A stretch of 49,498 bases of DNA from a virus (lineage: Duplodnaviria > Heunggongvirae > Uroviricota > Caudoviricetes), in the IMG/VR virus record IMGVR_UViG_3300029839_000128; one strand, written 5' to 3'. The first letter of the stretch is position 1. Each line of letters opens with the position of its first letter. This document shows, in pieces, positions 6,302 through 26,695 of the stretch. Below the pieces are notes generated by a model that had not been told where the DNA came from, did not search any database, and worked only from the letters and a program-made list of their open reading frames with translations. Position numbers and translations under genes: made by a program.

Positions 6302-6535
6302 GTGATCCCTATTACCAAGGAAGAGAAAGACCTGTTGGTCAAGTTGTTTCCCCGTCAGAAGTTTCCCAGAACTATGAAGCAAGACTCTAAGCGGCATCAT
6401 TATTTCTGCACTGAAAGTGAGGAGCTTATGCGGGCTATTGCCCATAGCAATTCTCAAGCGGCGCAGTTCGTTAAAGAGGCTGATCAGCGCAAGGAGTTGC
6501 GTGAGGCGAGAAAGAAGTATTTTGGTGATCGCTGA
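6302..6535 (+). CDS. hypothetical protein
   Basis: RBS AAAGGATG, GTG start, stop overlaps the next start. Confidence 0.7.
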   Translation: MIPITKEEKDLLVKLFPRQKFPRTMKQDSKRHHYFCTESEELMRAIAHSNSQAAQFVKEADQRKELREARKKYFGDR

Positions 6536-6729
6536 TGGCTTTCACGGAGAAACGCGAACAGTACAAAAATGCGGTTCTTGACCTCTCCGATAACACGCTG
6601 ACCGAGTTTGAGCGCGACGATGTGCGCGTTTACAGTATCGAAGAGATTTTGAAACGCTGGGATGGCGTGCCTGGTATTGTACTGACGATCGAACGGCGGG
6701 TAGGTCTTCCGCCGATAGAAGAGAGGTGA
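6535..6729 (+). CDS. YonK-like small protein
   Basis: 64 aa; the pattern LDLSDNTLTE..YSIEEILKRWDG..LTIE..LP resembles SPbeta YonK as I recall it. Its position just before a YonJ-like phosphoesterase matches. Confidence 0.6.
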   Translation: MAFTEKREQYKNAVLDLSDNTLTEFERDDVRVYSIEEILKRWDGVPGIVLTIERRVGLPPIEER

Positions 6730-7980: not shown

Positions 7981-8295
7981 GTGATCAAAAGCGATTTGGT
8001 CAATGCTCTGGCTGAGATGGATTACTGCAAGAACCAGGTGGGTGAAGTAATTAGCGATATTTTCAGGGTGATTGCAGAGGCACTTGTGGAAGGAGAAAAG
8101 GTCACGATTCGTGGCTTTGGAACTTTTGAGGTGAAAACGAGAAAAGGGCATCTGGTTCAGGATGCCCATACTAAGCAGAAGAAAATGATGGATGATTACC
8201 AGACGATAGTTTTTAAGCCTGGTGATAATCTGAAAGATGCTGTGAAGTATCGCGACGCCGATAGGCTTACTCTTCTGTCCAGAGCAGAAAAATAA
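7981..8295 (+). CDS. hup: HU-family histone-like DNA-binding protein
   Basis: MIKSDLVNALAE, VTIRGFGTFEVKTRKG and FKPGDNLKDAV signatures. Confidence 0.92.
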   Translation: MIKSDLVNALAEMDYCKNQVGEVISDIFRVIAEALVEGEKVTIRGFGTFEVKTRKGHLVQDAHTKQKKMMDDYQTIVFKPGDNLKDAVKYRDADRLTLLSRAEK

Positions 8296-8319
8296 AATGA
8301 AAAATTTAATGAGTTGCTA

Positions 8320-8348
8320 TTGACAATGAGAGAAAGCTGTGGTATAGT
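8320..8348 (+). promoter_or_regulatory. sigmaA/sigma70 promoter driving the RNA operon
   Basis: TTGACA (8320-8325), 17-nt spacer, TATAGT (8343-8348), an extended -10 TG and an A/T-rich upstream (UP-like) tract. Confidence 0.85.
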
Positions 8349-8427
8349 ATGAACATAGCAACGCATTAAAACATTTGTTGGTGAAGTACAGGATAAAATA
8401 AATTGTTTTGTTTACCAACTATGGACT

Positions 8428-8442
8428 TGTTCTTTGAAAACT
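8428..8442 (+). promoter_or_regulatory. rrn-type boxA antitermination element
   Basis: TGTTCTTTGAAAACT matches the Firmicutes rRNA-operon boxA and lies ~75 nt after the predicted TSS. Confidence 0.65.
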
Positions 8443-9076
8443 CAATCTTTCAATCATGCTTATTACTAACTCAGTGAACAAAGTGTGTCAGCGCTCTGAG
8501 GTATGGGGTAATTTCAGTCTGATCTGCGAGGGATACCTTTCAGGGAGGGCTGCTGCTGTGTAGCGATACATGGTGGGTAGGCGGAAACCGCCAAGAAAAA
8601 CTTATAGCGCCAAGAGTTGTCGCTTTGTAATGCACAGAACTTTCGGGCGAAACAATAGACGCTCCTGTGGAGAATAAGCCTTTGGGATTACGGTGTGGCA
8701 GCTGTAACGACGGAGGTAAAGCCAATAATTCGCTCCTGTCTTGATGTCGGAGAAATCCGGCTATAACGAAAGTCGCTGGTTAGAGTAGCCGTAGGACAGA
8801 GAGAAGATGATCTTTTTATAATGCAAATTGGATTGCGTTTTGTAAAAGTAAAATTTCTGAACGAACGGTGAAATTTACGGGTAGGCAATCCCGTGCGGGA
8901 ATAAGCGGACATAGAGCCGTGTAGGAGACTGGAACATCTCTGGGGTAAGAAGTTAGGGGTCGCGCCCCGAAGCTCAGACTTATCTTCCCGGTGGCAGAAA
9001 AACGAAGAAGGCAATGGAGGTAGGGTGAAGATCCAGTAATAAGTATGATTGAGAGATTGAGTTTTTCAAAGCAACA
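8428..9076 (+). ncRNA. large structured ncRNA (~570 nt core in a 40-bp terminal stem), ROOL-like candidate
   Basis: 8428-8467 pairs with 9035-9076 (40 bp, 2 G-U, 2 bulges). There is no + strand ORF in the track and there are many internal hairpins. It sits between a strong promoter and a tRNA array. The family name is by size and context only. Confidence 0.7.
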
Positions 9077-9089
9077 CATAAAAAGATTT

Positions 9090-9165
9090 GGGGCCATAGC
9101 TCAGCTGGGAGAGCGCCTGCCTTGCAAGCAGGAGGTCGGGAGTTCGATCCTCCCTGGTTCCACCA
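9090..9165 (+). tRNA. tRNA-Ala(TGC)
   Basis: Cloverleaf, anticodon arm CCTGC-ctTGCaa-GCAGG, G3-U70, encoded CCA. Confidence 0.97.
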
Positions 9166-9278
9166 GTAAGATGTGTTGGATATGTTGACGATTGTGCGGT
9201 TCAGCTCATTACTTTACTGCTATTTTAGTCAAAATCCTATCAGCTGCAGATGAGGTTCTTCGGACGCACATCGTAAAT

Positions 9279-9354
9279 CGGGATATAGCTCAGCAGGTAG
9301 AGCATACGATTGATAATCGTAAGGTCGGAAGTTCGACTCTTCCTGTCCCGACCA
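9279..9354 (+). tRNA. tRNA-Ile(GAT)
   Basis: TACGA-ttGATaa-TCGTA, GTTCGA T-loop, CCA. Confidence 0.95.
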
Positions 9355-9356
9355 TA

Positions 9357-9374
9357 AACCTTGAAAAGTAAATA
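9357..9374 (+). promoter_or_regulatory. second boxA-like element upstream of tmRNA
   Basis: AACCTTGAAAAGTAAATA resembles the clostridial rrn spacer boxA (ACCTTGAAAACTGAATA type). Confidence 0.4.
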
Positions 9375-9375
9375 T

Positions 9376-9785
9376 GGGGTCGCAATGGGTTCGACGGGGT
9401 TTTGAGAATGTGATGTTCGCAGGTAGAAGACCGCCTCAAGGCTTAACCAAAAATAAAATGACGACACTACTGTTGTAATGATCCATCCCGCACTGGCTGC
9501 TTGTGTAGCAGAGGGGATTGCCGCCTAATTGACGGCTGGAACCAAAACAATGCACTTGTACGGAAGGGGCATTTGAGGTTAAAGAATCCGTACATAAACA
9601 GTTTCCTTGTTCTGTAACAAAATAAGGTGGTGGAGGTGTGCCAAGCCGGTACGCCCTAAGTGTAGATTTGACAGTATCGCAAGCAACTTTCCGCAAGGAG
9701 AAAGCTGAAACACTGTCTATTGCGTAAGAAGACATCTCATAAGTAGGAATTTCGGACAGGGGTTCGATTCCCCTCGACTCCACCA
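9376..9785 (+). ncRNA. ssrA: tmRNA (transfer-messenger RNA)
   Basis: 5' GGGGTCG..GGTTCGACGGGG; 3' GGACAGGGGTTCGATTCCCCTCGACTCCACCA; acceptor stem with G3-U70. Tag frame 9460-9528 (DDTTVVMIHPALAACVAEGIAA*) follows an A-rich resume context. Confidence 0.95.
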
Positions 9786-9788
9786 TAT

Positions 9789-9864
9789 AGAGGATGTAGT
9801 GCTAATGGATAACACGCCGGCTTTGGGAGCCGGAATTGCGGTTCAAATCCGACATCTTCTACCA
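9789..9864 (+). tRNA. tRNA-Pro(TGG), atypical (8-bp acceptor, short T-stem)
   Basis: CCGGC-ttTGGga-GCCGG anticodon arm, GTTCAAATC T-loop, CCA; acceptor AGAGGATG/CATCTTCT. Confidence 0.75.
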
Positions 9865-9868
9865 TCTT

Positions 9869-9929
9869 TGGGGCACTTACAGCAACATTAACAAAACTTG
9901 TATAGGTTTCAAGAAAAAAATGTGCCCTA
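9869..9929 (+). repeat. ACAGCAAC stem element, copy 1 (candidate small RNA)
   Basis: TGGGGCAC/GTGCCCTA stem enclosing TTACAGCAAC, an A-rich linker and a CTTG/CAAG hairpin. Confidence 0.65.
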
Positions 9930-9937
9930 TAAAATAC

Positions 9938-10004
9938 GGAGACGCTAACAGCAACTTAACAAAAAAATCAAAGCTATTTACATTTGACAACAAAATGCGT
10001 CTTC
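9938..10004 (+). repeat. ACAGCAAC stem element, copy 2
   Basis: GGAGACGC/GCGTCTTC stem enclosing TAACAGCAAC, an A-rich linker and a TCAAA/TTTGA hairpin. Confidence 0.65.
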
Positions 10005-10010
10005 AAATAT

Positions 10011-10086
10011 TGGCCCGTAGCTCAGTTGGTAGAGCGCCTGACTGTTAATCAGGATGTCGCAGGTTCGAGTCCTGCCGGGTCAGCCA
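10011..10086 (+). tRNA. tRNA-Asn(GTT)
   Basis: CCTGA-ctGTTaa-TCAGG, G73, CCA. Confidence 0.97.
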
Positions 10087-10136
10087 ACAATAACAGGCGT
10101 AATGCCGTTTGCCCTTGGGAGACCGGGGTTATATAT

Positions 10137-10211
10137 TGCGGGGTAGAGCAGCGGTAGCTCACCAGCCCCATAAGCTGGGGGTCGTGGGTTCGAGTCCCAC
10201 CTCCGCAACCA
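10137..10211 (+). tRNA. tRNA-Met(CAT), initiator-like body
   Basis: CCAGC-ccCATaa-GCTGG; TGCGGGG acceptor and A11-U24 resemble fMet; CCA. Confidence 0.85.
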
Positions 10212-10442
10212 TGCCCGCCTCACGAACAGAGCGGAGACTGTAAACCGAATGAGGAATAGAAACCATCGTATCTGGCAGCGGTGATTTGCAGGTTTAGGAA
10301 ATCTGATGACGAGCGGAAAGACGCTACACCCAAGGCTTTTGACCAAGTTAGGTTTGGGTTGAAGAAAAACTGGCGGAGATCCATTACTCCTGAACTGGTG
10401 ACGCTTCGCAAAGACGAAGATTGCGCCGCAAGCGGCGCATAT

Positions 10443-10518
10443 GTCCGGTTAGCTCAGCTGGGAGAGCATATGCCCTACAAGCATGGGGTCGGCGGTTCGA
10501 GTCCGTCACCGGACACCA
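10443..10518 (+). tRNA. tRNA-Val(TAC)
   Basis: TATGC-ccTACaa-GCATG, GTTCGA T-loop, CCA. Confidence 0.93.
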
Positions 10519-10523
10519 TAAAT

Positions 10524-10600
10524 GCAGGCGTAGTGTTTAACGGATAGCATACTGGTCTTCCAAACCAGGGGTACGGGTTCAAATCCCGTTGTCTGCTCCA
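10524..10600 (+). tRNA. tRNA-Gly(TCC)
   Basis: CTGGT-ctTCCaa-ACCAG, U73, CCA. Confidence 0.93.
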
Positions 10601-10609
10601 TTTTAATAT

Positions 10610-10694
10610 GCGGGTATGGCGGAATTGGAAGACGTGCGGGATTTAGGTTCCCGCGCCGTAAGGCGTGTGAGTTCGATCCTCACTACCCGTACCA
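10610..10694 (+). tRNA. tRNA-Leu(TAG)
   Basis: CGGGA-ttTAGgt-TCCCG, long variable arm, CCA. Confidence 0.95.
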
Positions 10695-10696
10695 CT

Positions 10697-10761
10697 GGGG
10701 CACTTACAGCAACTTATTTTCTGGAATCAACTGTTAATTGATCAAACCAAAACAGTGCTCC
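10697..10761 (+). repeat. ACAGCAAC stem element, copy 3, carrying an Asn(GTT)-type anticodon stem-loop
   Basis: GGGGCACT/AGTGCTCC stem, TTACAGCAAC, and internal ATCAA-ctGTTaa-TTGAT. Confidence 0.7.
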
Positions 10762-10769
10762 GTATATAT

Positions 10770-10856
10770 GCCGGCGTGATGGAATTGGTAGACTTGACGG
10801 ACTCAAAATCCGTTGGTAGCGATACCGTGTGGGTTCGAGTCCCACCGCCGGCACCA
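10770..10856 (+). tRNA. tRNA-Leu(CAA)
   Basis: ACGGA-ctCAAaa-TCCGT, long variable arm, CCA. Confidence 0.95.
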
Positions 10857-10864
10857 GCTTTTAC

Positions 10865-10949
10865 GCGGGGGTGGCGTAACTGGCAGACGCATCAGGCTTA
10901 AGTCCTGATATCGTGAGGTGTAGGGGTTCGAGTCCCCTTCCCCGCACCA
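10865..10949 (+). tRNA. tRNA-Leu(TAA)
   Basis: TCAGG-ctTAAgt-CCTGA, long variable arm, CCA. Confidence 0.92.
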
Positions 10950-10959
10950 TATTACAGCT

Positions 10960-11036
10960 GGCAGCATGACTGGAGATGGCTCCAGCACGGCTTCATAAGC
11001 CGTAAGACGCAGGTTCGAGTCCTGCTGCTGCCACCA
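10960..11036 (+). tRNA. tRNA-Met(CAT) (elongator Met, or Ile2), atypical D-arm
   Basis: ACGGC-ttCATaa-GCCGT, GGCAGCA/TGCTGCC acceptor, CCA; the D-arm is CTGGA/TCCAG. Confidence 0.85.
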
Positions 11037-11039
11037 TAT

Positions 11040-11113
11040 GATGCCGTAGCCAAGTGGTAAGGCTCTGGGCTGCAACCCCAGGATCATAGGTTCAAATCCT
11101 ATCGGCGTCTCCA
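11040..11113 (+). tRNA. tRNA-Cys(GCA)
   Basis: CTGGG-ctGCAac-CCCAG, U73, CCA. Confidence 0.95.
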
Positions 11114-11116
11114 TAT

Positions 11117-11192
11117 TGGGGTATCGCCAAAATGGTTAAGGCACAGGACTTTGACTCCTGCACTACTGGTTCGAGTCCAGTTACCCCAGCCA
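11117..11192 (+). tRNA. tRNA-Gln(TTG)
   Basis: CAGGA-ctTTGac-TCCTG, U1-A72, CCA. Confidence 0.95.
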
Positions 11193-11340
11193 TAAGGTTT
11201 GACCGTACCTTGCCACACGGTTTGGTATGACACCGCCATAAGTAGTGTGTAGCGGCAGCGCGCAGAAGGTTATGCGAGCTATGCGTTGGTTCTACGGCAA
11301 TGTGAAAGTAAGTGTTGGCAGCACACCGTAGAGTTTATAT

Positions 11341-11417
11341 GCTCCCATCCTCTAATTGGAATAGGAGGCCGGCCTCTCAAGCCGGCAATACGAGTTCGAG
11401 CCTCGTTGGGAGTACCA
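11341..11417 (+). tRNA. tRNA-Glu(CTC)
   Basis: CCGGC-ctCTCaa-GCCGG, CCA. Confidence 0.92.
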
Positions 11418-11420
11418 AAT

Positions 11421-11497
11421 GGTGCCGTGGACGAATTGGTAGAGTTGCCGGCCTTTCAAGCCGGAGTTTGCGGGTTCAATCCCCGCCGGCATCACCA
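11421..11497 (+). tRNA. tRNA-Glu(TTC)
   Basis: CCGGC-ctTTCaa-GCCGG, CCA. Confidence 0.92.
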
Positions 11498-11513
11498 GAA
11501 ATGAGGATCGTAT

Positions 11514-11744
11514 ATGGGCAGAAAATCTAACGAAACACAAGTTAAAATTGTGAAGAAGATACCGTCTACTGAAAATGGGCCGGGTGTACATTGTACTACT
11601 TTATCTGGGGACATATATATTATTTCTCAATGCGTAGAGAAATGCAGATTTACATTATGGCACAAGGTTGAAGGAGGTTTTGTCCAGATAGCAACTGCGA
11701 AATCTCCATTAGATCTTGATGATATGATTCCTTGGATAGACTAA
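11514..11744 (+). CDS. small hypothetical protein embedded in the tRNA array
   Basis: 76-aa ORF that fills the spacer between tRNA-Glu and tRNA-Asp; GAGGA RBS before the ATG. Confidence 0.6.
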   Translation: MGRKSNETQVKIVKKIPSTENGPGVHCTTLSGDIYIISQCVEKCRFTLWHKVEGGFVQIATAKSPLDLDDMIPWID

Positions 11745-11746
11745 AT

Positions 11747-11823
<77 letters not shown>

Positions 11824-11825
11824 AT

Positions 11826-11900
11826 AGGGGTTTGGTGTAATTGGCAGCATGACGGTCTCCAAAATCGTTGGTGAGGGTTCAAATCCTTCAACCCCTGCCA
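11826..11900 (+). tRNA. tRNA-Trp(CCA)
   Basis: ACGGT-ctCCAaa-ATCGT, G73, CCA. Confidence 0.95.
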
Positions 11901-11901
11901 T

Positions 11902-11977
11902 GCTGATGTAGCTCAGATGGTAGAGCGATTGTTTCGTAAGCAATATGTCCAGAGTTCGATTCTCTGCATCAGCTCCA
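11902..11977 (+). tRNA. tRNA-Thr(CGT)
   Basis: ATTGT-ttCGTaa-GCAAT, CCA. Confidence 0.93.
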
Positions 11978-11980
11978 TTT

Positions 11981-12056
11981 GCTGGTATAGCTCAGATGGT
12001 AGAGCGACGGATTTGTAACCCGTAGGTCGTCGGTTCGACCCCGGCTACCAGCTCCA
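11981..12056 (+). tRNA. tRNA-Thr(TGT)
   Basis: ACGGA-ttTGTaa-CCCGT, CCA. Confidence 0.93.
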
Positions 12057-12194
12057 TTCACAAGATATGTAGTTTGGAAACTACACTAAATATAGGAGTT
12101 TTAATAGAAATCAATGAAGCATTGTTTTAAGAACCATCCCGAATAGTAATGGGCAGGGGATAAATACATATAAATACTTAGTCAAAATATAAAT

Positions 12195-12281
12195 CGGTAG
12201 GTATCCAAATTGGTGAAGGAAGCGGTCTGTAAAATCGTGACATTAGAAACGCTGTTGGTTCAAGTCCAACCCTACCGACCA
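12195..12281 (+). tRNA. tRNA-Tyr(GTA) with C1-G72
   Basis: GCGGT-ctGTAaa-ATCGT, long variable region, acceptor CGGTAGG/CCTACCG, A73, CCA. Confidence 0.9.
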
Positions 12282-12286
12282 AATAT

Positions 12287-12379
12287 GGCGGAATTGACCC
12301 CAGTAGGTGCGGGGAGCAGTCTTGAAAACTGTTGGCTGTGATGAGCGGCTTGTGGGTTCGAGTCCTACTTCCGCCGCCA
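12287..12379 (+). tRNA. tRNA-Ser(TGA)
   Basis: GCAGT-ctTGAaa-ACTGT, long variable arm, G73, CCA. Confidence 0.92.
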
Positions 12380-12441
12380 TACTTCATATACCATGTGTAT
12401 ATTGAAGCCAGGGAAGTCGTATTGCGATTTCCCTCTTTTAC

Positions 12442-12518
12442 GGAACGATAGCTTATGAGGTCTGAGCGGCGGTCTGAAAAACCGCAGGATGAAGGATCGT
12501 TACCTTCTCGTTCCACCA
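12442..12518 (+). tRNA. tRNA-Phe(GAA), T-loop variant
   Basis: GCGGT-ctGAAaa-ACCGC; T-arm GAAGG-ATCGTTA-CCTTC; CCA. Confidence 0.88.
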
Positions 12519-12874
12519 TGCCAGAAATGGCAACTTTACTCCTATCAAGGTGCGAGGCGAGACGGATAGGCGTCTAAGACCCACGCAACATCTTATCTTA
12601 TGCCGGCAAGTGTATGGGGTCATTCCCTCCGGTGAAAGTCCGGCGCAGAAACGCGATAGATCTAACTGAGCTGCTGTGAGCAAAGCAGGCAAGCCGATCA
12701 GGAGCGCGGCGGGCCGACATACCCCAACAGGACTTTGGGAGCCTGAGAAAGTATGTCCCTCTAAAGGTGGTCAGCAACTGAGGTAAAAGAAGTGTAGTAA
12801 CCGTGCAAATCGGAACGACTGGTAAATTCCATCCGTGAGAGTCGGACGTTGCTTCTACGAAAAGAAGCTTTTAT

Positions 12875-12950
12875 GCGCCTGTAGCTCAGATGGAAGAGCA
12901 GCGCACTTTTAATGCGTGGGTCGGGGGTTCGATTCCCTTCAGGCGCACCA
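12875..12950 (+). tRNA. tRNA-Lys(TTT)
   Basis: GCGCA-ctTTTaa-TGCGT, CCA. Confidence 0.96.
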
Positions 12951-12974
12951 AATCATATGACCAATATTATGAGG

Positions 12975-13002
12975 AGTCCGACCATTTCTGGTCGGGCTTT
13001 TT
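12975..13002 (+). terminator. intrinsic terminator ending the RNA operon
   Basis: AGTCCGACCA-tttc-TGGTCGGGCT followed by a T-run. Confidence 0.8.
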
Positions 13003-13026
13003 CTATATAGAAAGGAGGCCGCAGCA

Positions 13027-14025
13027 ATGGCGGTAAAAAAGCAGCTGATGAAAAGAACGTCGGCTCCGAAAGTAAACAAGAATGCAAAGCCTGGAACGAT
13101 TGAGCCGCGCATTGAAAGTGACGAGGAATATCGCTGTGTAACTTGCGGCCACAAGTATAAAAAGCAGGAAAGCAATTTTGGAGCGTCTAAATCTCCGCTA
13201 TTTTCAGGTAACAATGGATATGTTCCTTATTGCCGACATTGTATCGCAAAACTCTACGAGAGCTATATCCCTTTTTATGATAACGATGAGGATGCGGCAA
13301 TGGAAAGGGTATGCCAGATTACCGATATGTATTTTGATCCAGATATTTGGGCTATGTCCCGGAAGATCAGCACCAGCAAGGATGGGAAAAGCCGGAATAG
13401 GGTGAGCACCTATATTTCAAAGTTGAATTTGAAACAAAGTGATGGCTGCAATACCTATTCTGACACCTTAATCCGCAGATGGGAAGCAGAAGTAGAAAAT
13501 GCTGAGACTGTGCAGGAAGCTGTACAGAACGAAGATATCAAAGTCACACTGGAAACTATGCGTAGATTTGGTATGGGATTTACAGATGGCGATTACGATG
13601 TGATGCAGTCTGAATATGATAGCTGGATTGAAAAGATGGGCGAGCCGATCGATAAGCGCCAAGAAGAGCTTTATGTAACAATTTGTTATTTGAAGCTCAA
13701 TCTACAAAAAAGTATTCAGGGTGGATCGACCGGTACCGGAACAACAGCTAATTCTTATAAAGCTTTTATTGAGGCTGCAACAACCGAGATTGAAGACCGA
13801 AAGAAAAAGGCTGAAGCTGATATGGAGCTTAAACCTATTGGTATGCTTTATCGAGACATCGAAGAGTATTGTCCGGCTGAGTATTACAAGGACAAAACTT
13901 TGTATGCAGATTTCGATCATTTGAAAGAATATATCCTCCGGTTTATGTCCCGCCCTCTTAAAAATCTTCTGACCGGCTCCAAAGAAATGGATAAGGAATT
14001 TAACTTGTCTGGATCGGAGGAGTAA
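13027..14025 (+). CDS. Zn-finger protein preceding terminase (putative terminase small subunit, YonG-like position)
   Basis: CVTC...CRHC Zn ligands, strong RBS, directly upstream of TerL. The function is inferred from position. Confidence 0.55.
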   Translation: MAVKKQLMKRTSAPKVNKNAKPGTIEPRIESDEEYRCVTCGHKYKKQESNFGASKSPLFSGNNGYVPYCRHCIAKLYESYIPFYDNDEDAAMERVCQITDMYFDPDIWAMSRKISTSKDGKSRNRVSTYISKLNLKQSDGCNTYSDTLIRRWEAEVENAETVQEAVQNEDIKVTLETMRRFGMGFTDGDYDVMQSEYDSWIEKMGEPIDKRQEELYVTICYLKLNLQKSIQGGSTGTGTTANSYKAFIEAATTEIEDRKKKAEADMELKPIGMLYRDIEEYCPAEYYKDKTLYADFDHLKEYILRFMSRPLKNLLTGSKEMDKEFNLSGSEE

Positions 14026-14027
14026 TT

Positions 14028-15827
14028 ATGGATTATGAAAAAATCATGGATGAGCGTCAGAAACACCTCCATGAACACTTTTCTCCTAATAGTTATCTTG
14101 GAGATCCAGATCGAGTTAAACGGTTGCTGGACTGGATGACGTTCTGGCGACGAAATCCAAATCGATTTGTCCAGTATTACTTTGGAATCGTGCTCCATCT
14201 GTATCAGCATATCATTTTATATCTGATGGACATTTATCCCAGTATTTGCATTGTTGCAGCGCGAAGCGCAGCTAAGTCATTTATCATTGCGGTATACGCC
14301 TGCAAGGAGGCGATTTTACGACCTGGTGCCCGTATCGTTATTGCGTCAGCCACCAAGAAACAAGCACGATTGATTGTTTCGGAAAAGATAAAAAAAGAAA
14401 TTTTACCGCGATCTCCGCTTTTGCAGGAGGAAATCGATACCTTTAAGGATAGCCAAAATGATATTGAGGTCATTTTTAGAAACGGTAGTTCTATTGTAGT
14501 TACAGTAGCGAACGATACAGCTCGTGGTCTGCGTGCTACGGTTATGATTTACGAAGAGTTCCGAATGATCGTAAAGAATATCATTGATACAGTTTTGTCT
14601 CCTTTTCTGTATGCTCGGCAGGTGCCTTTTATGCAGTATGAGGAGTATGATTCGCTGCTGGAAGAGCCAAAGGAAGTTTATATTAGTTCTGCGTGGTATC
14701 GAAACCATTGGATGTGGGGCAGTATAAAAACTTTTGTAAAAGATATGCTTGGCAAAGACTCTTCGGTAGTGATTACAATGGATTACAGCATTGCTTTGAA
14801 ACACAAAATCAAAACCAGAAATTTCCTTATCAAAGAGCGAAAGAAGTTGGACGCCATCGCGTGGGCAATCGAATATGAGAACCAAATGATTTCGGAAAAT
14901 GCTCATGCGTATTTTACTTATGAGATGTTAAACAAAAATCGTATTTTGAAGCGCCCATTTTATCCAAGGAAAAATGAGGATGTTCTCTCTCGCGTAAGGA
15001 ATAAATACGCTATTCCTAAACAAAAAGGAGAAGTACGAATTATCAGTTGCGATATTGCATCTGAGGGAGGTACTGGAAACGATAATTCCGTATTCTCATG
15101 TATTCGTGCTTTACCAGAGTCTAAAGAGTATAAGAGATCGGATACGGGTGGAGATCATATCGAAGTGCAGCAGGGTTATCGCCGACAGGTGGTTTATATG
15201 GAAGCTCAGGAAGAGTTTGAAACCATTAAGCAAGCGATCCGAATTAAGCAACTGTTTGCTGATTTTGAGGCGGATTACTGTGTGTTGGATACCAGAAACG
15301 CTGGTGTTGCCATTTTTGATGCACTGGCGAAGGTACTCTATGATGAGGAACGCAATGTAGAATATACTCCATGGACTTGCATGAATGACGATAAGCTAAA
15401 ATCTCGCATTGTAATTGCGGGCCAAGAAGAGGTTGTATTTTCTGTTAAGGCACAGTTGGATACCAATAGCAAAATTGCAGTTTGTATGCGCAATACTCTT
15501 GAAAATGGAATGATTGAGCTGATGATCAATAACCAAGAAGGTATTGAAGAGCTGCAGCGTCTTGTTCCAGAGTATGCGACAGCGGATGTAGATACTCAAA
15601 TTGGTTATGAGCGTCCATTCCACGAAACTTCCGCGCTGGTCAACGAAATGATTGGTTTGGAATACACAGTTATGAACCAGACGGGCTTAATCCGTATTGA
15701 GGAGAAAGCTGGCGCAAGAAAAGACCGTTATACATCGGTATCCTATGGCAACTATTTTATTGAGCTTTTGGAAAAAGATTTGTTTTCTGATAGCTCTGAA
15801 TACGAATACCTAACTCTTGTAAATTAA
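14028..15827 (+). CDS. terL: terminase large subunit
   Basis: Walker A variant AARSAAKS, Walker B IYEEFR, YISSAW coupling motif, nuclease motifs SCDIA and RKDRYTS. Confidence 0.9.
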   Translation: MDYEKIMDERQKHLHEHFSPNSYLGDPDRVKRLLDWMTFWRRNPNRFVQYYFGIVLHLYQHIILYLMDIYPSICIVAARSAAKSFIIAVYACKEAILRPGARIVIASATKKQARLIVSEKIKKEILPRSPLLQEEIDTFKDSQNDIEVIFRNGSSIVVTVANDTARGLRATVMIYEEFRMIVKNIIDTVLSPFLYARQVPFMQYEEYDSLLEEPKEVYISSAWYRNHWMWGSIKTFVKDMLGKDSSVVITMDYSIALKHKIKTRNFLIKERKKLDAIAWAIEYENQMISENAHAYFTYEMLNKNRILKRPFYPRKNEDVLSRVRNKYAIPKQKGEVRIISCDIASEGGTGNDNSVFSCIRALPESKEYKRSDTGGDHIEVQQGYRRQVVYMEAQEEFETIKQAIRIKQLFADFEADYCVLDTRNAGVAIFDALAKVLYDEERNVEYTPWTCMNDDKLKSRIVIAGQEEVVFSVKAQLDTNSKIAVCMRNTLENGMIELMINNQEGIEELQRLVPEYATADVDTQIGYERPFHETSALVNEMIGLEYTVMNQTGLIRIEEKAGARKDRYTSVSYGNYFIELLEKDLFSDSSEYEYLTLVN

Positions 15828-24751: not shown

Positions 24752-24770
24752 CGCTATGGGGGTGGGGAGC

Positions 24771-25304
24771 ATGAGAATACTGGCGGTTGATCAGGCAAGA
24801 CACGGCGGTTGGGCCGTTTTTGATTATGAAAATAAGACATTACTCGATTATGGAGTATGGTCATACGACAATAAAAAATGTTCGTTTGAACAGGCGATGC
24901 TGCATATTGAAGCGTTGATTGATGAGGTGATTCACGCGCATGGCGCTGATGCAGTTTTCTTTGAGGACATTCAACTAAGGCAGAATGTTCAATCTTTTAA
25001 GAGGCTGGCACAGCTGCAAGGCGCACTCGTTTTGCTCTGCGAGAAGAACGAATACCTATATGGTTTGGTGGCACCTACACAATGGCAGAACTATTGTAAG
25101 GCACGCGGGCGAACAGAAAAAGAAATTAAGGCTAAGGTGACAGAAATTATCCCTGGATGCAAAAAAAACTCAAAAGTTCTGTCATTGCAGTTTGTAAAAG
25201 AAAAGTTTGGTATCGAAACGGAGAACGACAACCTTTCTGATGCGATCTGTATCGGGCACTATGTCGTAAACAATTTAGAAATTGCAAAAGGAGAAACAAC
25301 ATGA
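24771..25304 (+). CDS. RuvC-like Holliday junction resolvase
   Basis: MRILAVDQA (Asp), VFFEDIQ (Glu) and NDNLSDAICIG (two Asp). ATG 24771 follows GGGGAG. Confidence 0.85.
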   Translation: MRILAVDQARHGGWAVFDYENKTLLDYGVWSYDNKKCSFEQAMLHIEALIDEVIHAHGADAVFFEDIQLRQNVQSFKRLAQLQGALVLLCEKNEYLYGLVAPTQWQNYCKARGRTEKEIKAKVTEIIPGCKKNSKVLSLQFVKEKFGIETENDNLSDAICIGHYVVNNLEIAKGETT

Positions 25305-25951
25305 AGAAAATCCGTGATGAAAAGAAGCCTTTGGTTGAGTTTATGGACGAGTTCGGCGATGTGGAAACGCTGATGGAGACCAGTTTGCCCGATCCCACGC
25401 TGTTGGAATATTATCGTCGGCTACAGAAGCGCGAGATTTTGTGGAATGATGATATTGACGATACCACAATCGATATTGCCATGTATATCAAGAAATGGAA
25501 TGAGGAGGATAAAGGTAAGGGCGTTGAGGAACGCAAGCCTATTAAGATCTTTATCAATTCGGACGGCGGTAGTTTGGATACTATCATGCACATTATCGAT
25601 ATGATTTTACTGTCAAAGACCCCTGTTATTACGATTGGTATGGGTCGTGTATATAGTGCTGGTGGGCTTCTATTGATGGCAGGCCATAAGCGCTATATTT
25701 TCAATCATACCAGCTGTCTGATTCACGACGGTTCTTCCGGTGCGATTGGCAGTGTTGGTAAGCTGCTGGACAATCTGAAGTTTACTGAGGCGTTTGAACA
25801 GCGAGTGAAGCAATACATTACATCACAGACTCGCATTACCTCTGAGATGTATGAAGACAACTATCGCCGTGACTGGTTCCTTTTCAGTGACGATATGATT
25901 CGCTTGGGTATTGCGGATGAGGTTGTGGCAGACATCGATACCATTCTTTAA
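25301..25951 (+). CDS. clpP: ClpP-like serine protease
   Basis: PIKIFINSDGG, VYSAG (Ser), LIHDG (His), RDWF (Asp) and GIADEVV. Confidence 0.88.
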   Translation: MKKIRDEKKPLVEFMDEFGDVETLMETSLPDPTLLEYYRRLQKREILWNDDIDDTTIDIAMYIKKWNEEDKGKGVEERKPIKIFINSDGGSLDTIMHIIDMILLSKTPVITIGMGRVYSAGGLLLMAGHKRYIFNHTSCLIHDGSSGAIGSVGKLLDNLKFTEAFEQRVKQYITSQTRITSEMYEDNYRRDWFLFSDDMIRLGIADEVVADIDTIL

Positions 25952-25963
25952 GGGGTGAAAACT

Positions 25964-26695
25964 ATGGCAAAGAAACGCACGGGATCGGATATTTACGATG
26001 TACCTATGTCTCTCCGGGATCAGCCCTTTTATGGGTTGGTTCTGGATGAGCAACAGCAGGTTTTCCGAGATGCGATCTGGGACGAAAACAAACTGATTGT
26101 TTTTTGTAATGCAAAAGCAGGAACCGGTAAAACTCTGATCGCTACGGCAACGGCAAATTTGTTGTGTAAGTATGGACGATATGAGGGGATCGTGTACATT
26201 GCGTCTCCCACTCAGGAGCAGAAGCAGGGATATCTGAAAGGTAGTATTGAGGAAAAGTCCGAACCCTATTTCGAGCCATTTTATCAGGCGCTCAAAAAAA
26301 TTGGTGTCAATTTGAACACTGCTTTTTACGATGACAGTGTAAACGAAAAATATCAGACAGCATACATTGAGTGTCTTACACACACCTTTTTGAGAGGCAC
26401 TAACTTTGAAAATAAGGTGGTAATCGTGGATGAGGCGCAAAATTTCTATTTTGATGAATTGATGAAAGTTTTGACCCGCATTCACGATAATTGTAAGGTG
26501 ATCGTGATTGGACACGACGGGCAGAATGATTTGCTGTCTAACCCAGAGCGCTCTGGGTTTGTACCATATCTCTCATGGTTTAAGAATGACGAAAGAACAG
26601 CTGTTTGCCAACTGGAGAAAAACTATCGTGGTTGGATTAGCCAGCACGCAGACGAGTTGAATTTCAAGAGTGCAATGAAATTTATGGAGGACTGA
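25964..26695 (+). CDS. phoH: PhoH-family ATPase
   Basis: AKAGTGKT, GYLKGSIEEK, FLRGTNF, VDEAQN, LTRI and IGHDGQND. ATG 25964 follows AAGGGGTG (track start 25955). Confidence 0.9.
   Translation: MAKKRTGSDIYDVPMSLRDQPFYGLVLDEQQQVFRDAIWDENKLIVFCNAKAGTGKTLIATATANLLCKYGRYEGIVYIASPTQEQKQGYLKGSIEEKSEPYFEPFYQALKKIGVNLNTAFYDDSVNEKYQTAYIECLTHTFLRGTNFENKVVIVDEAQNFYFDELMKVLTRIHDNCKVIVIGHDGQNDLLSNPERSGFVPYLSWFKNDERTAVCQLEKNYRGWISQHADELNFKSAMKFMED

Follow-up and report, generated by a model that had tools for sequence, protein, structure and literature searches.

The stretch of DNA analysed here, called the window throughout (49,498 nt), comes from a large tailed phage, as is evident from its genes for terminase, portal, tape measure protein (2835 aa) and tail proteins. 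Behind a gene for an HU-type DNA-binding protein, its + strand holds an RNA at 8428..9076 which is a full-length member of the ROOL family and heads a cluster of 23 tRNAs and a tmRNA. The features of the locus are the following.

7981..8295, + strand: gene for an HU-type DNA-binding protein (PF00216, E 2e-21; phrog_379), the upstream landmark
8320..8348, + strand: sigma-70-type promoter (11/12 to the consensus, extended -10)
8377..8419, + strand: leader hairpin before the boxA-like element, in a boxB-like position (fold z -2.9)
8428..8442, + strand: boxA-like element of rrn type, forming the outermost part of the 5' arm of the closing stem (host consensus matched at 13/15)
8428..8467, + strand: 5' arm of the closing stem (MFE fold), P1 plus an extension past the Rfam model's 16 bp
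9035..9076, + strand: 3' arm of the closing stem (MFE fold)
9090..9165, + strand: tRNA-Ala(UGC), 13 nt past the stem (Rfam, tRNA scan)
9279..9354, + strand: tRNA-Ile(GAU) (Rfam, tRNA scan)
9355..9369, + strand: second boxA-like element, directly before the tmRNA (12/15)
9376..9785, + strand: phage tmRNA (RF00023, 83.5 bits; ARAGORN)
9789..12950, + strand: remaining tRNA array of 21 tRNAs (tRNA scan)
14028..15827, + strand: terminase large subunit, by which related phages were collected; genes for portal, tape measure and tail lie behind it

ROOL RNAs were described by Weinberg et al. 2017 (PMC5737381) and Cousin et al. 2017 (PMC5643018). Members studied so far assemble as hollow RNA-only cages: the env-120 RNA forms an octamer according to the text of Kretsch et al. 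2025 (PMC12286853), while reviews list an octamer for E. faecalis ROOL and a hexamer for L. salivarius ROOL (PMC12990946, PMC12412911, PMC12515178). When the whole 49.5-kb window was scanned against 4227 Rfam families at gathering score, ROOL (RF03087) was matched at 8446..9053 (+) over model positions 1-574 of 574 with 377.4 bits, the cut-off being 99.1 (E 6.3e-87). GOLLD and OLE gave no match at gathering score in the whole window, nor at E <= 0.5 in 8200-13100. A preliminary description made from the sequence alone had proposed a large structured, ROOL-like RNA whose size favoured ROOL over GOLLD, and had suggested comparison with these three models; both proposals are thereby borne out, and its option of a new family, made dependent there on the lack of a strong ROOL match, is refuted. 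The RNA measures 608 nt in the model match and 649 nt with the whole closing stem, compared with a family mean of 581 nt given by Weinberg et al. (PMC5737381). For a ROOL copy it is unremarkable, joining a family in which structures have already been solved.

Relatives of the terminase (69-80% identity) occur in ten bacterial genome records bearing Clostridia, Clostridiaceae or Clostridiales titles or named as Dysosmobacter, Oscillospiraceae, Butyricicoccus or Hominicoprocola, and four of these ten genomes carry ROOL. The host is thus inferred to belong to the Clostridia, with named hosts including Oscillospiraceae. Among virus records the nearest is G001, a linear sequence of 123 kb (91% complete) whose ROOL scores 375.7 bits and differs from that of the window in 5 of 649 bases. 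A serine recombinase (PF07508) was not found in G001, and a lifestyle could be proposed solely from the relatives inside bacterial contigs. NusB and RNase III are present in all three host genomes searched and were not found in G001, so that these factors would come from the host. The window also encodes an 8-oxoguanine glycosylase, a YonK-like protein and a RuvC-like/ClpP-like/PhoH-like gene trio, the last inside the structural region (190-1053, 6535-6729, 24756-26695).

The promoter predicts a transcription start near 8355, and all 17 sequences examined, the window among them, have a promoter in this position. The window's promoter is surrounded by a 16-bp inverted repeat (15/16; 8305-8320 and 8355-8370); such a repeat, differing in sequence, accompanies 14 of the 17 promoters (window included), two of the five ROOL-less ones among them, and may serve as a repressor-binding site or fold as a hairpin when transcripts of the HU gene read through. 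The leader hairpin at 8377..8419 is not conserved, relatives having a tRNA-Thr or nothing there. Part of the leader (8358-8377) is imperfectly repeated right behind ROOL at 9071-9090 (17/20); within lineages the two copies are more alike than the cross-lineage mean in 11 of 12 cases and than the cross-lineage maximum in seven. This repeat could favour ROOL loss by recombination or form an alternative pairing. In the tmRNA, the tag reported by ARAGORN looks wrong; the probable tag frame, 9460-9528, gives a 22-residue peptide ending in IAA-stop, an ending typical of tmRNA degradation tags. Gene-free gaps without Rfam match lie between the tRNAs at 10212-10440, 11193-11340 and 12520-12870; RNA-run contigs cover 10123-10430 and 12454-12807, and further structured RNAs are possible in these gaps.

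Fold, covariation and expression of the RNA

The minimum free energy fold reproduces the pairing first described for this RNA, i.e. a closing stem of 40 pairs between 8428-8467 and 9035-9076, with 38 Watson-Crick pairs, two G-U wobbles (8449/9053 and 8458/9044) and single-base bulges at 9062 and 9072, which encloses 567 nt. Fold energy is -222.4 kcal/mol on the + strand (z -6.3) and -162.7 kcal/mol on the - strand (z -3.4; 20 shuffles each). No + strand open reading frame of at least 60 aa overlaps the region, in agreement with the preliminary description. The five hairpins quoted there (8580-8592, 8747-8760, 8877-8894, 8956-8968 and 8814-8847) are all present; the fifth, situated in the variable linker, is no more stable than its shuffles (z -1.0) and is absent from the consensus structure.

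Covariation was assessed in an alignment of the window with 11 non-redundant clade copies, 71-80% identical to it. For these 12 sequences, RNAalifold predicted 155 pairs, 68 of which show change on both sides, so that the covariation suggested earlier as a check is indeed found. Pairing is retained in 98.0% of 1860 cells, a value reached by none of 500 shuffles and compared with about 40% in slid controls, the consensus structure being favoured in this count by its derivation from the same alignment. Compensatory change occurs in 21 of 24 helices across the interior, and in 12 of 28 consensus pairs of the closing stem. In the inner 27 positions of that stem (324 cells), 46 G-U and no A-C pairs were counted beside ten other mismatches, which fixes both the + strand and selection at the RNA level. 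Selection on RNA pairing had originally been read from the window's two wobbles; these are thin evidence by themselves, and it is the relatives that uphold the claim. Across the ROOL region the relatives carry many indels, of 1-2 nt and larger. Hairpin-like insertions of about 59 and 24 nt are located in the P3a arm of two clade ROOLs (L030:1213-1927 and L007:1248-1906; alignment columns 106-164), where this arm, as judged from the alignment, would be a second tolerated cargo site beside the linker.

Long-range contacts and loops were located as follows, their names being mapped from the text of Kretsch et al. (PMC12286853).

8696..8724, + strand: long-range pairing 8696-8699/8721-8724 (48/48 cells paired; one pair C-G in 7 and U-A in 5 sequences), likely the intermolecular kissing contact L8-J6/8 (bridge B4)
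8799..8855, + strand: variable linker containing hairpin 8814-8847 (Rfam insert columns; poorly conserved in the alignment), predicted to lie inside the cage by analogy with the same work
8856..8978, + strand: pseudoknot-type pairing 8856-8860 (linker flank)/8974-8978 (60/60 cells paired, one compensatory change), which we take as the linker-flank/J17-18 pseudoknot
8956..8968, + strand: hairpin with a 5-nt loop, 8960-8964 (loop identical in 11 of 12 sequences, one base differing in the window), likely the self-kissing loop L18 joining the half-cages

Taken together, the two long-range contacts are paired in every one of 108 cells and each has a single compensatory pair, a compensatory count also reached by 35 of 500 shuffles. 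A third candidate contact, 8657-8661/8737-8741, competes with a candidate 8737-8740/8795-8798 in the 12 sequences. The loop at 8960-8964 reads UCGCG in the window and UCGCU in the 11 relatives, giving the window a perfect 4-base palindrome, and the variant might alter cage stability.

Sequence runs holding all or part of the stretch number 22 from 11 studies, mostly of gut, faeces or chicken gut, and 15 of them are recorded as RNA. Contigs cover the ROOL core in four of five RNA runs examined, from three of four studies: 8468-8994 in X1 (depth 215), 8507-9014 in X4 (180), 8538-9033 in X8 (main contig 60) and two pieces in X3 (4-5), these contigs showing neither strand, ends nor level and possibly containing DNA. 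In run X2, no ROOL contig was among the matches listed. The ROOL contig of X1 stands at depth 215 against 3.6-7.4 for neighbouring coding contigs, a difference that supports no ranking of genes given that the runs were chosen for holding the stretch. Four differences from the window common to X1, X4 and X8 keep the structure, two turning G-U into G-C, one G-C into G-U and one being unpaired. RNA contigs of three studies reach the stem's inner ends or stop short of them, and a run of unrecorded kind (X19) spans it; such ends are a weak hint of an RNase III cut, as a 40-bp stem can also block library making. RNA cover is missing over 8378-8467, a gap from which no inference is possible. This copy is a real, full-length ROOL that is very likely expressed.

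Relatives of the locus and the boxA-like element

A core-motif scan of viral contigs returned at least 91 loci, 73 of which hold ROOL by profile, with 16 of the first 20 above the Rfam cut-off; a terminase search added 80 further viral loci. Against 50,697 GenBank phage records, blastn gave hits of tRNA length only among the 30 matches listed, none of the records reaching 80% query coverage. Gain and loss were followed in 91 terminase-anchored sequences, of which 54 were informative in that a ROOL match or the HU junction was visible, a selection favouring ROOL carriers; ROOL is present in 37 and absent from 17 of the 54. On a 19-row terminase tree the presence of ROOL needs four changes, at least three being forced by well-supported branches, and it is no more clustered than shuffled labels (71/500). 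Judged from these sequences, ROOL is a dispensable accessory in these phages, in agreement with its being non-essential in L. salivarius as stated in PMC12286853. At ROOL-less loci, a small GC-rich hairpin takes ROOL's place in 11 of 12.

The flanks of distant ROOL loci (e.g. L012, L038, L074 versus L003, L011, L055, L068) fall into three types. ROOL may have its own promoter just before the stem, in several cases with a terminator-like hairpin behind; it may be wedged between tRNAs with a short stem; or it may carry boxA and a long stem. This variety suggests that several routes could lead to the mature RNA. In a group with 69% terminase identity (L102, L146, L151, L154, L156 and others), a segment of about 900 nt, apparently a protein-gene start, separates ROOL from tRNA-Ala, and the tmRNA is without boxA. 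Three distant phage loci (L011, L016, L018) have a RAGATH-21 RNA upstream of their ROOL.

The boxA-like element at 8428..8442 begins with the first base of the closing stem. It was scored against a 15-nt host-group boxA consensus, TGYACCTTGWAAAYT, which was taken from rRNA loci of the Oscillospiraceae group and built post hoc, after the motif had been noticed. With 13/15 it is the only site of at least 13/15 in the 49.5-kb window on either strand, 0.7 being expected per window; sites of at least 12/15 (13 seen, 9.3 expected) are barely above chance. Read from 8427, it also agrees at 11/13 with the NusB-binding B. subtilis consensus, NusB binding to such a boxA-like sequence being reported in the text of PMC13753749. 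Among the 12 host 16S loci with both flanks, 11 (in 9 of 10 genomes) have the same 15-nt motif in the leader-trailer helix, on the outer part of the 5' arm. Of 16 host spacers, 11 show an almost identical motif before 23S, and the variant in a twelfth matches the window at 14 consecutive bases. In the complete genome G002, six of seven exact TGYACCTTGWAAAYT matches flank its three 16S genes, a count that is partly circular given that G002 contributed to the consensus.

For the survey of ROOL loci, 115 sequences with a ROOL match were reduced to 28 by removing those without anchor or flank and collapsing near-copies. All ten clade lineages, whose shared ancestry (71-80% identity to the window) means that they are not ten independent origins, score 11-14/15 at -40 (nine) or -39 (one) from the next helix (shuffle p 0.003-0.05), and their stems have 28-41 pairs. 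Outside the clade, three of 18 ROOL lineages score 12/15, all with stems of 34-40 pairs, and 15 lack a strong box, scores which a consensus from this host group may set too low for the boxA of other hosts. Hence, boxA is not needed for ROOL in general. Several distant ROOLs are preceded by matches of the CTTGAAAA type, which fall within the anticodon arm of tRNA-Ser(UGA) and were set aside. Conservation is 0.70 in the box, compared with 0.52 in the would-be partner strand and 0.38 in the 15 nt upstream. The box is almost fully paired in the window's closed stem, and its 5' half is mostly unpaired in the relatives; a box conserved while its pairing is lost is as expected for a protein-binding site. 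A control in which the 5' arm was compared with the reverse complement of the 3' arm gave the higher score to the 5' arm in 10 of 10 cases, a partly trivial outcome as bulges shift the register.

The 12 loci that lack ROOL and have an intact array, from about three lineages, keep the promoter, and their best box score before the first tRNA is 9-10/15. Among 545 distinct windows behind other tRNAs, ten reach 12/15, eight of these being the ROOL box behind tRNA-Thr. Spacers of the tmRNA type have a box of at least 11/15 in eight of 14 distinct cases, the three host tmRNAs scoring 8-9. The tmRNA-proximal site of the window is weak alone, 12/15 sites being near chance there.

In the published ROOL alignment, at least 15 rows open with a boxA-like motif (supplement of PMC12286853). 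The main text of that work contains none of the terms boxA, RNase III, antitermination and Nus, and its searchable supplements none of boxA, RNase III and NusB; boxA and RNase III are likewise absent from the main text of PMC5737381. No link between ROOL and boxA was found in this literature, to which the supplement of Weinberg 2017, outside its scope, may add matter bearing on the claim. As a sequence feature the boxA and stalk are well supported, and they yield a hypothesis of biogenesis that can be tested; they are apparently unpublished.

Proposed biogenesis and its rivals

On balance, the ROOL gene heading the tRNA/tmRNA cluster is best read as one whose transcript the host would make and trim as it does its rRNA precursors, before the RNA assembles into a cage. 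Host polymerase would start near 8355 from the promoter observed at 8320-8348. While still single-stranded, the nascent boxA-like element would bind host NusB-S10 and set up an rrn-type elongation complex, which could aid both polymerase passage and folding over 600 untranslated bases. The 3' arm would then close the 28-40-bp leader-trailer helix, a pairing supported by covariation; RNase III would cut this helix and RNase P would free tRNA-Ala. The freed core of about 570-610 nt would fold as ROOL and join other copies through the conserved kissing contacts, as expected from solved relatives, and the cage would serve as a dispensable accessory of the phage's translation-support kit. Of the parts of this model, assembly of the present RNA into a protein-free hexamer or octamer cage is quite likely by analogy with those relatives, reading of the box by Nus is probable from its sequence and position, and an RNase III cut in the closing stem is slightly favoured.

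Precedents exist in rRNA maturation. RNase III cuts both rRNA stalks in B. subtilis, as given in rrn references (PMC13753749, PMC4838370, PMC10250234), and in E. coli the leader-trailer helix is described as essential for 30S formation, the effect of boxA being 2-3-fold (PMC10250234). According to the text of PMC13753749, direct demonstration of an rrn antitermination complex is still lacking for Gram-positive bacteria. The env-120 RNA used for cryo-EM (659 nt) has its two ends paired in a stem (PMC12286853), so a long stem is compatible with a cage. If the model is true, ROOL would gain its first host protein partners and a biogenesis route, and its production would be tied to host rRNA control. 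The texts searched describe no protein partner or maturation route for ROOL, and the boxA-stalk names candidates, NusB-S10 and RNase III, along with the exact bases. The clade moreover offers natural pairs with and without ROOL, near relatives keeping promoter and tRNA array with the small hairpin instead, some of them in genomes of named strains. As to the purpose of the cage, the published hypothesis is encapsulation; that it is stable and abundant and contains, or acts as a decoy for, small RNAs or host proteins binding or cutting RNA is a speculative and rather doubtful proposal.

Two other readings accept the RNA and differ on the stem or the box. The long stem could be part of the mature ROOL, a rigid P1 rod whose ends arise by the start site or by RNase P and exonuclease, with the likeness to boxA inherited and unread. 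This is unlikely, yet it has on its side the solved env-120 structure, in which covarying pairs extend from position 1 to position 659 (PMC12286853), as well as the lack of a strong box in 15 of 18 distant lineages and the pairing of the box in the window's own fold. It accounts poorly for a box sequence that is kept where the partner strand has drifted and pairing is lost, that is absent at the heads of ROOL-less arrays, and that recurs before the phage tmRNA and not before three host tmRNAs. Such recurrence, seen also in the ROOL-less phages L098 and L138, would suit a boxA that acts as antitermination signal for the whole operon of about 4.6 kb of tRNAs and tmRNA, with ROOL merely lying behind it and the stem no RNase III site, and so would a long untranslated operon under a strong promoter. 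The 12 ROOL-less loci with intact arrays, however, have no box at the array head (best 9-10/15), and in loci opening with tRNA-Thr the box is nonetheless found right at the ROOL stem, which makes this reading improbable.

Rivals that deny a functional + strand RNA fare worse. Patchy presence in related phages and the leader repeat behind ROOL, above the cross-lineage mean in 11 of 12, would fit a DNA-level inverted-repeat cassette (MITE-like) between direct repeats, in which RNA structure is incidental. The strand-specific wobble bias (46 G-U, 0 A-C), the compensatory change in 21 of 24 helices and the full-length ROOL match refute it as the main explanation and leave it a very small probability; the leader repeats may still account for ROOL loss. 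A protein gene on the minus strand, where ORFs of 61, 108 and 93 aa overlap the ROOL region, is more improbable still in view of the + strand wobble bias, the many indels in relatives, the + strand promoter and the orientation of all neighbouring genes on +. Trimming of a boxA-bearing precursor by the host is the preferred reading.

Comparison with known systems

With the ROOL family (RF03087) the RNA shares the full-length model match, the size, the multi-junction fold, the variable linker, the long-range contacts and the phage tRNA neighbours. It differs in a closing stem of 40 bp, compared with 16 bp in the Rfam model, in a boxA-like outer arm that the ROOL texts searched do not mention, in its clostridial gut-phage lineage, and in a putative self-kissing loop one base off that of 11 relatives. 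GOLLD is likewise a large ornate phage RNA adjoining tRNAs and, according to the text of PMC12286853, forms RNA-only cages; its sequence and structure are unrelated to the RNA at hand, which it does not match in Rfam.

Compared with an rrn leader, the enclosed RNA is ROOL instead of 16S, the second RNA is a tmRNA with no stalk seen, and the whole is phage-encoded. The Ala-then-Ile order recurs in one host rrn spacer, yet the pair also heads ROOL-less arrays and lies about 900 nt behind ROOL in some relatives, so that tRNA order alone is no evidence of rrn mimicry. A bolder reading, evenly poised between true and false, is that ROOL and the phage tmRNA are additional RNAs of ribosomal type in gut phages, which would have copied host boxA and leader-trailer helix to let the rRNA antitermination complex and RNase III transcribe, fold and excise a cage-forming RNA. 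The likeness itself runs from promoter and leader hairpin through a boxA placed outermost on the 5' side of a long leader-trailer helix and the large structured RNA within it to tRNA-Ala and tRNA-Ile, a second boxA and a second large RNA.
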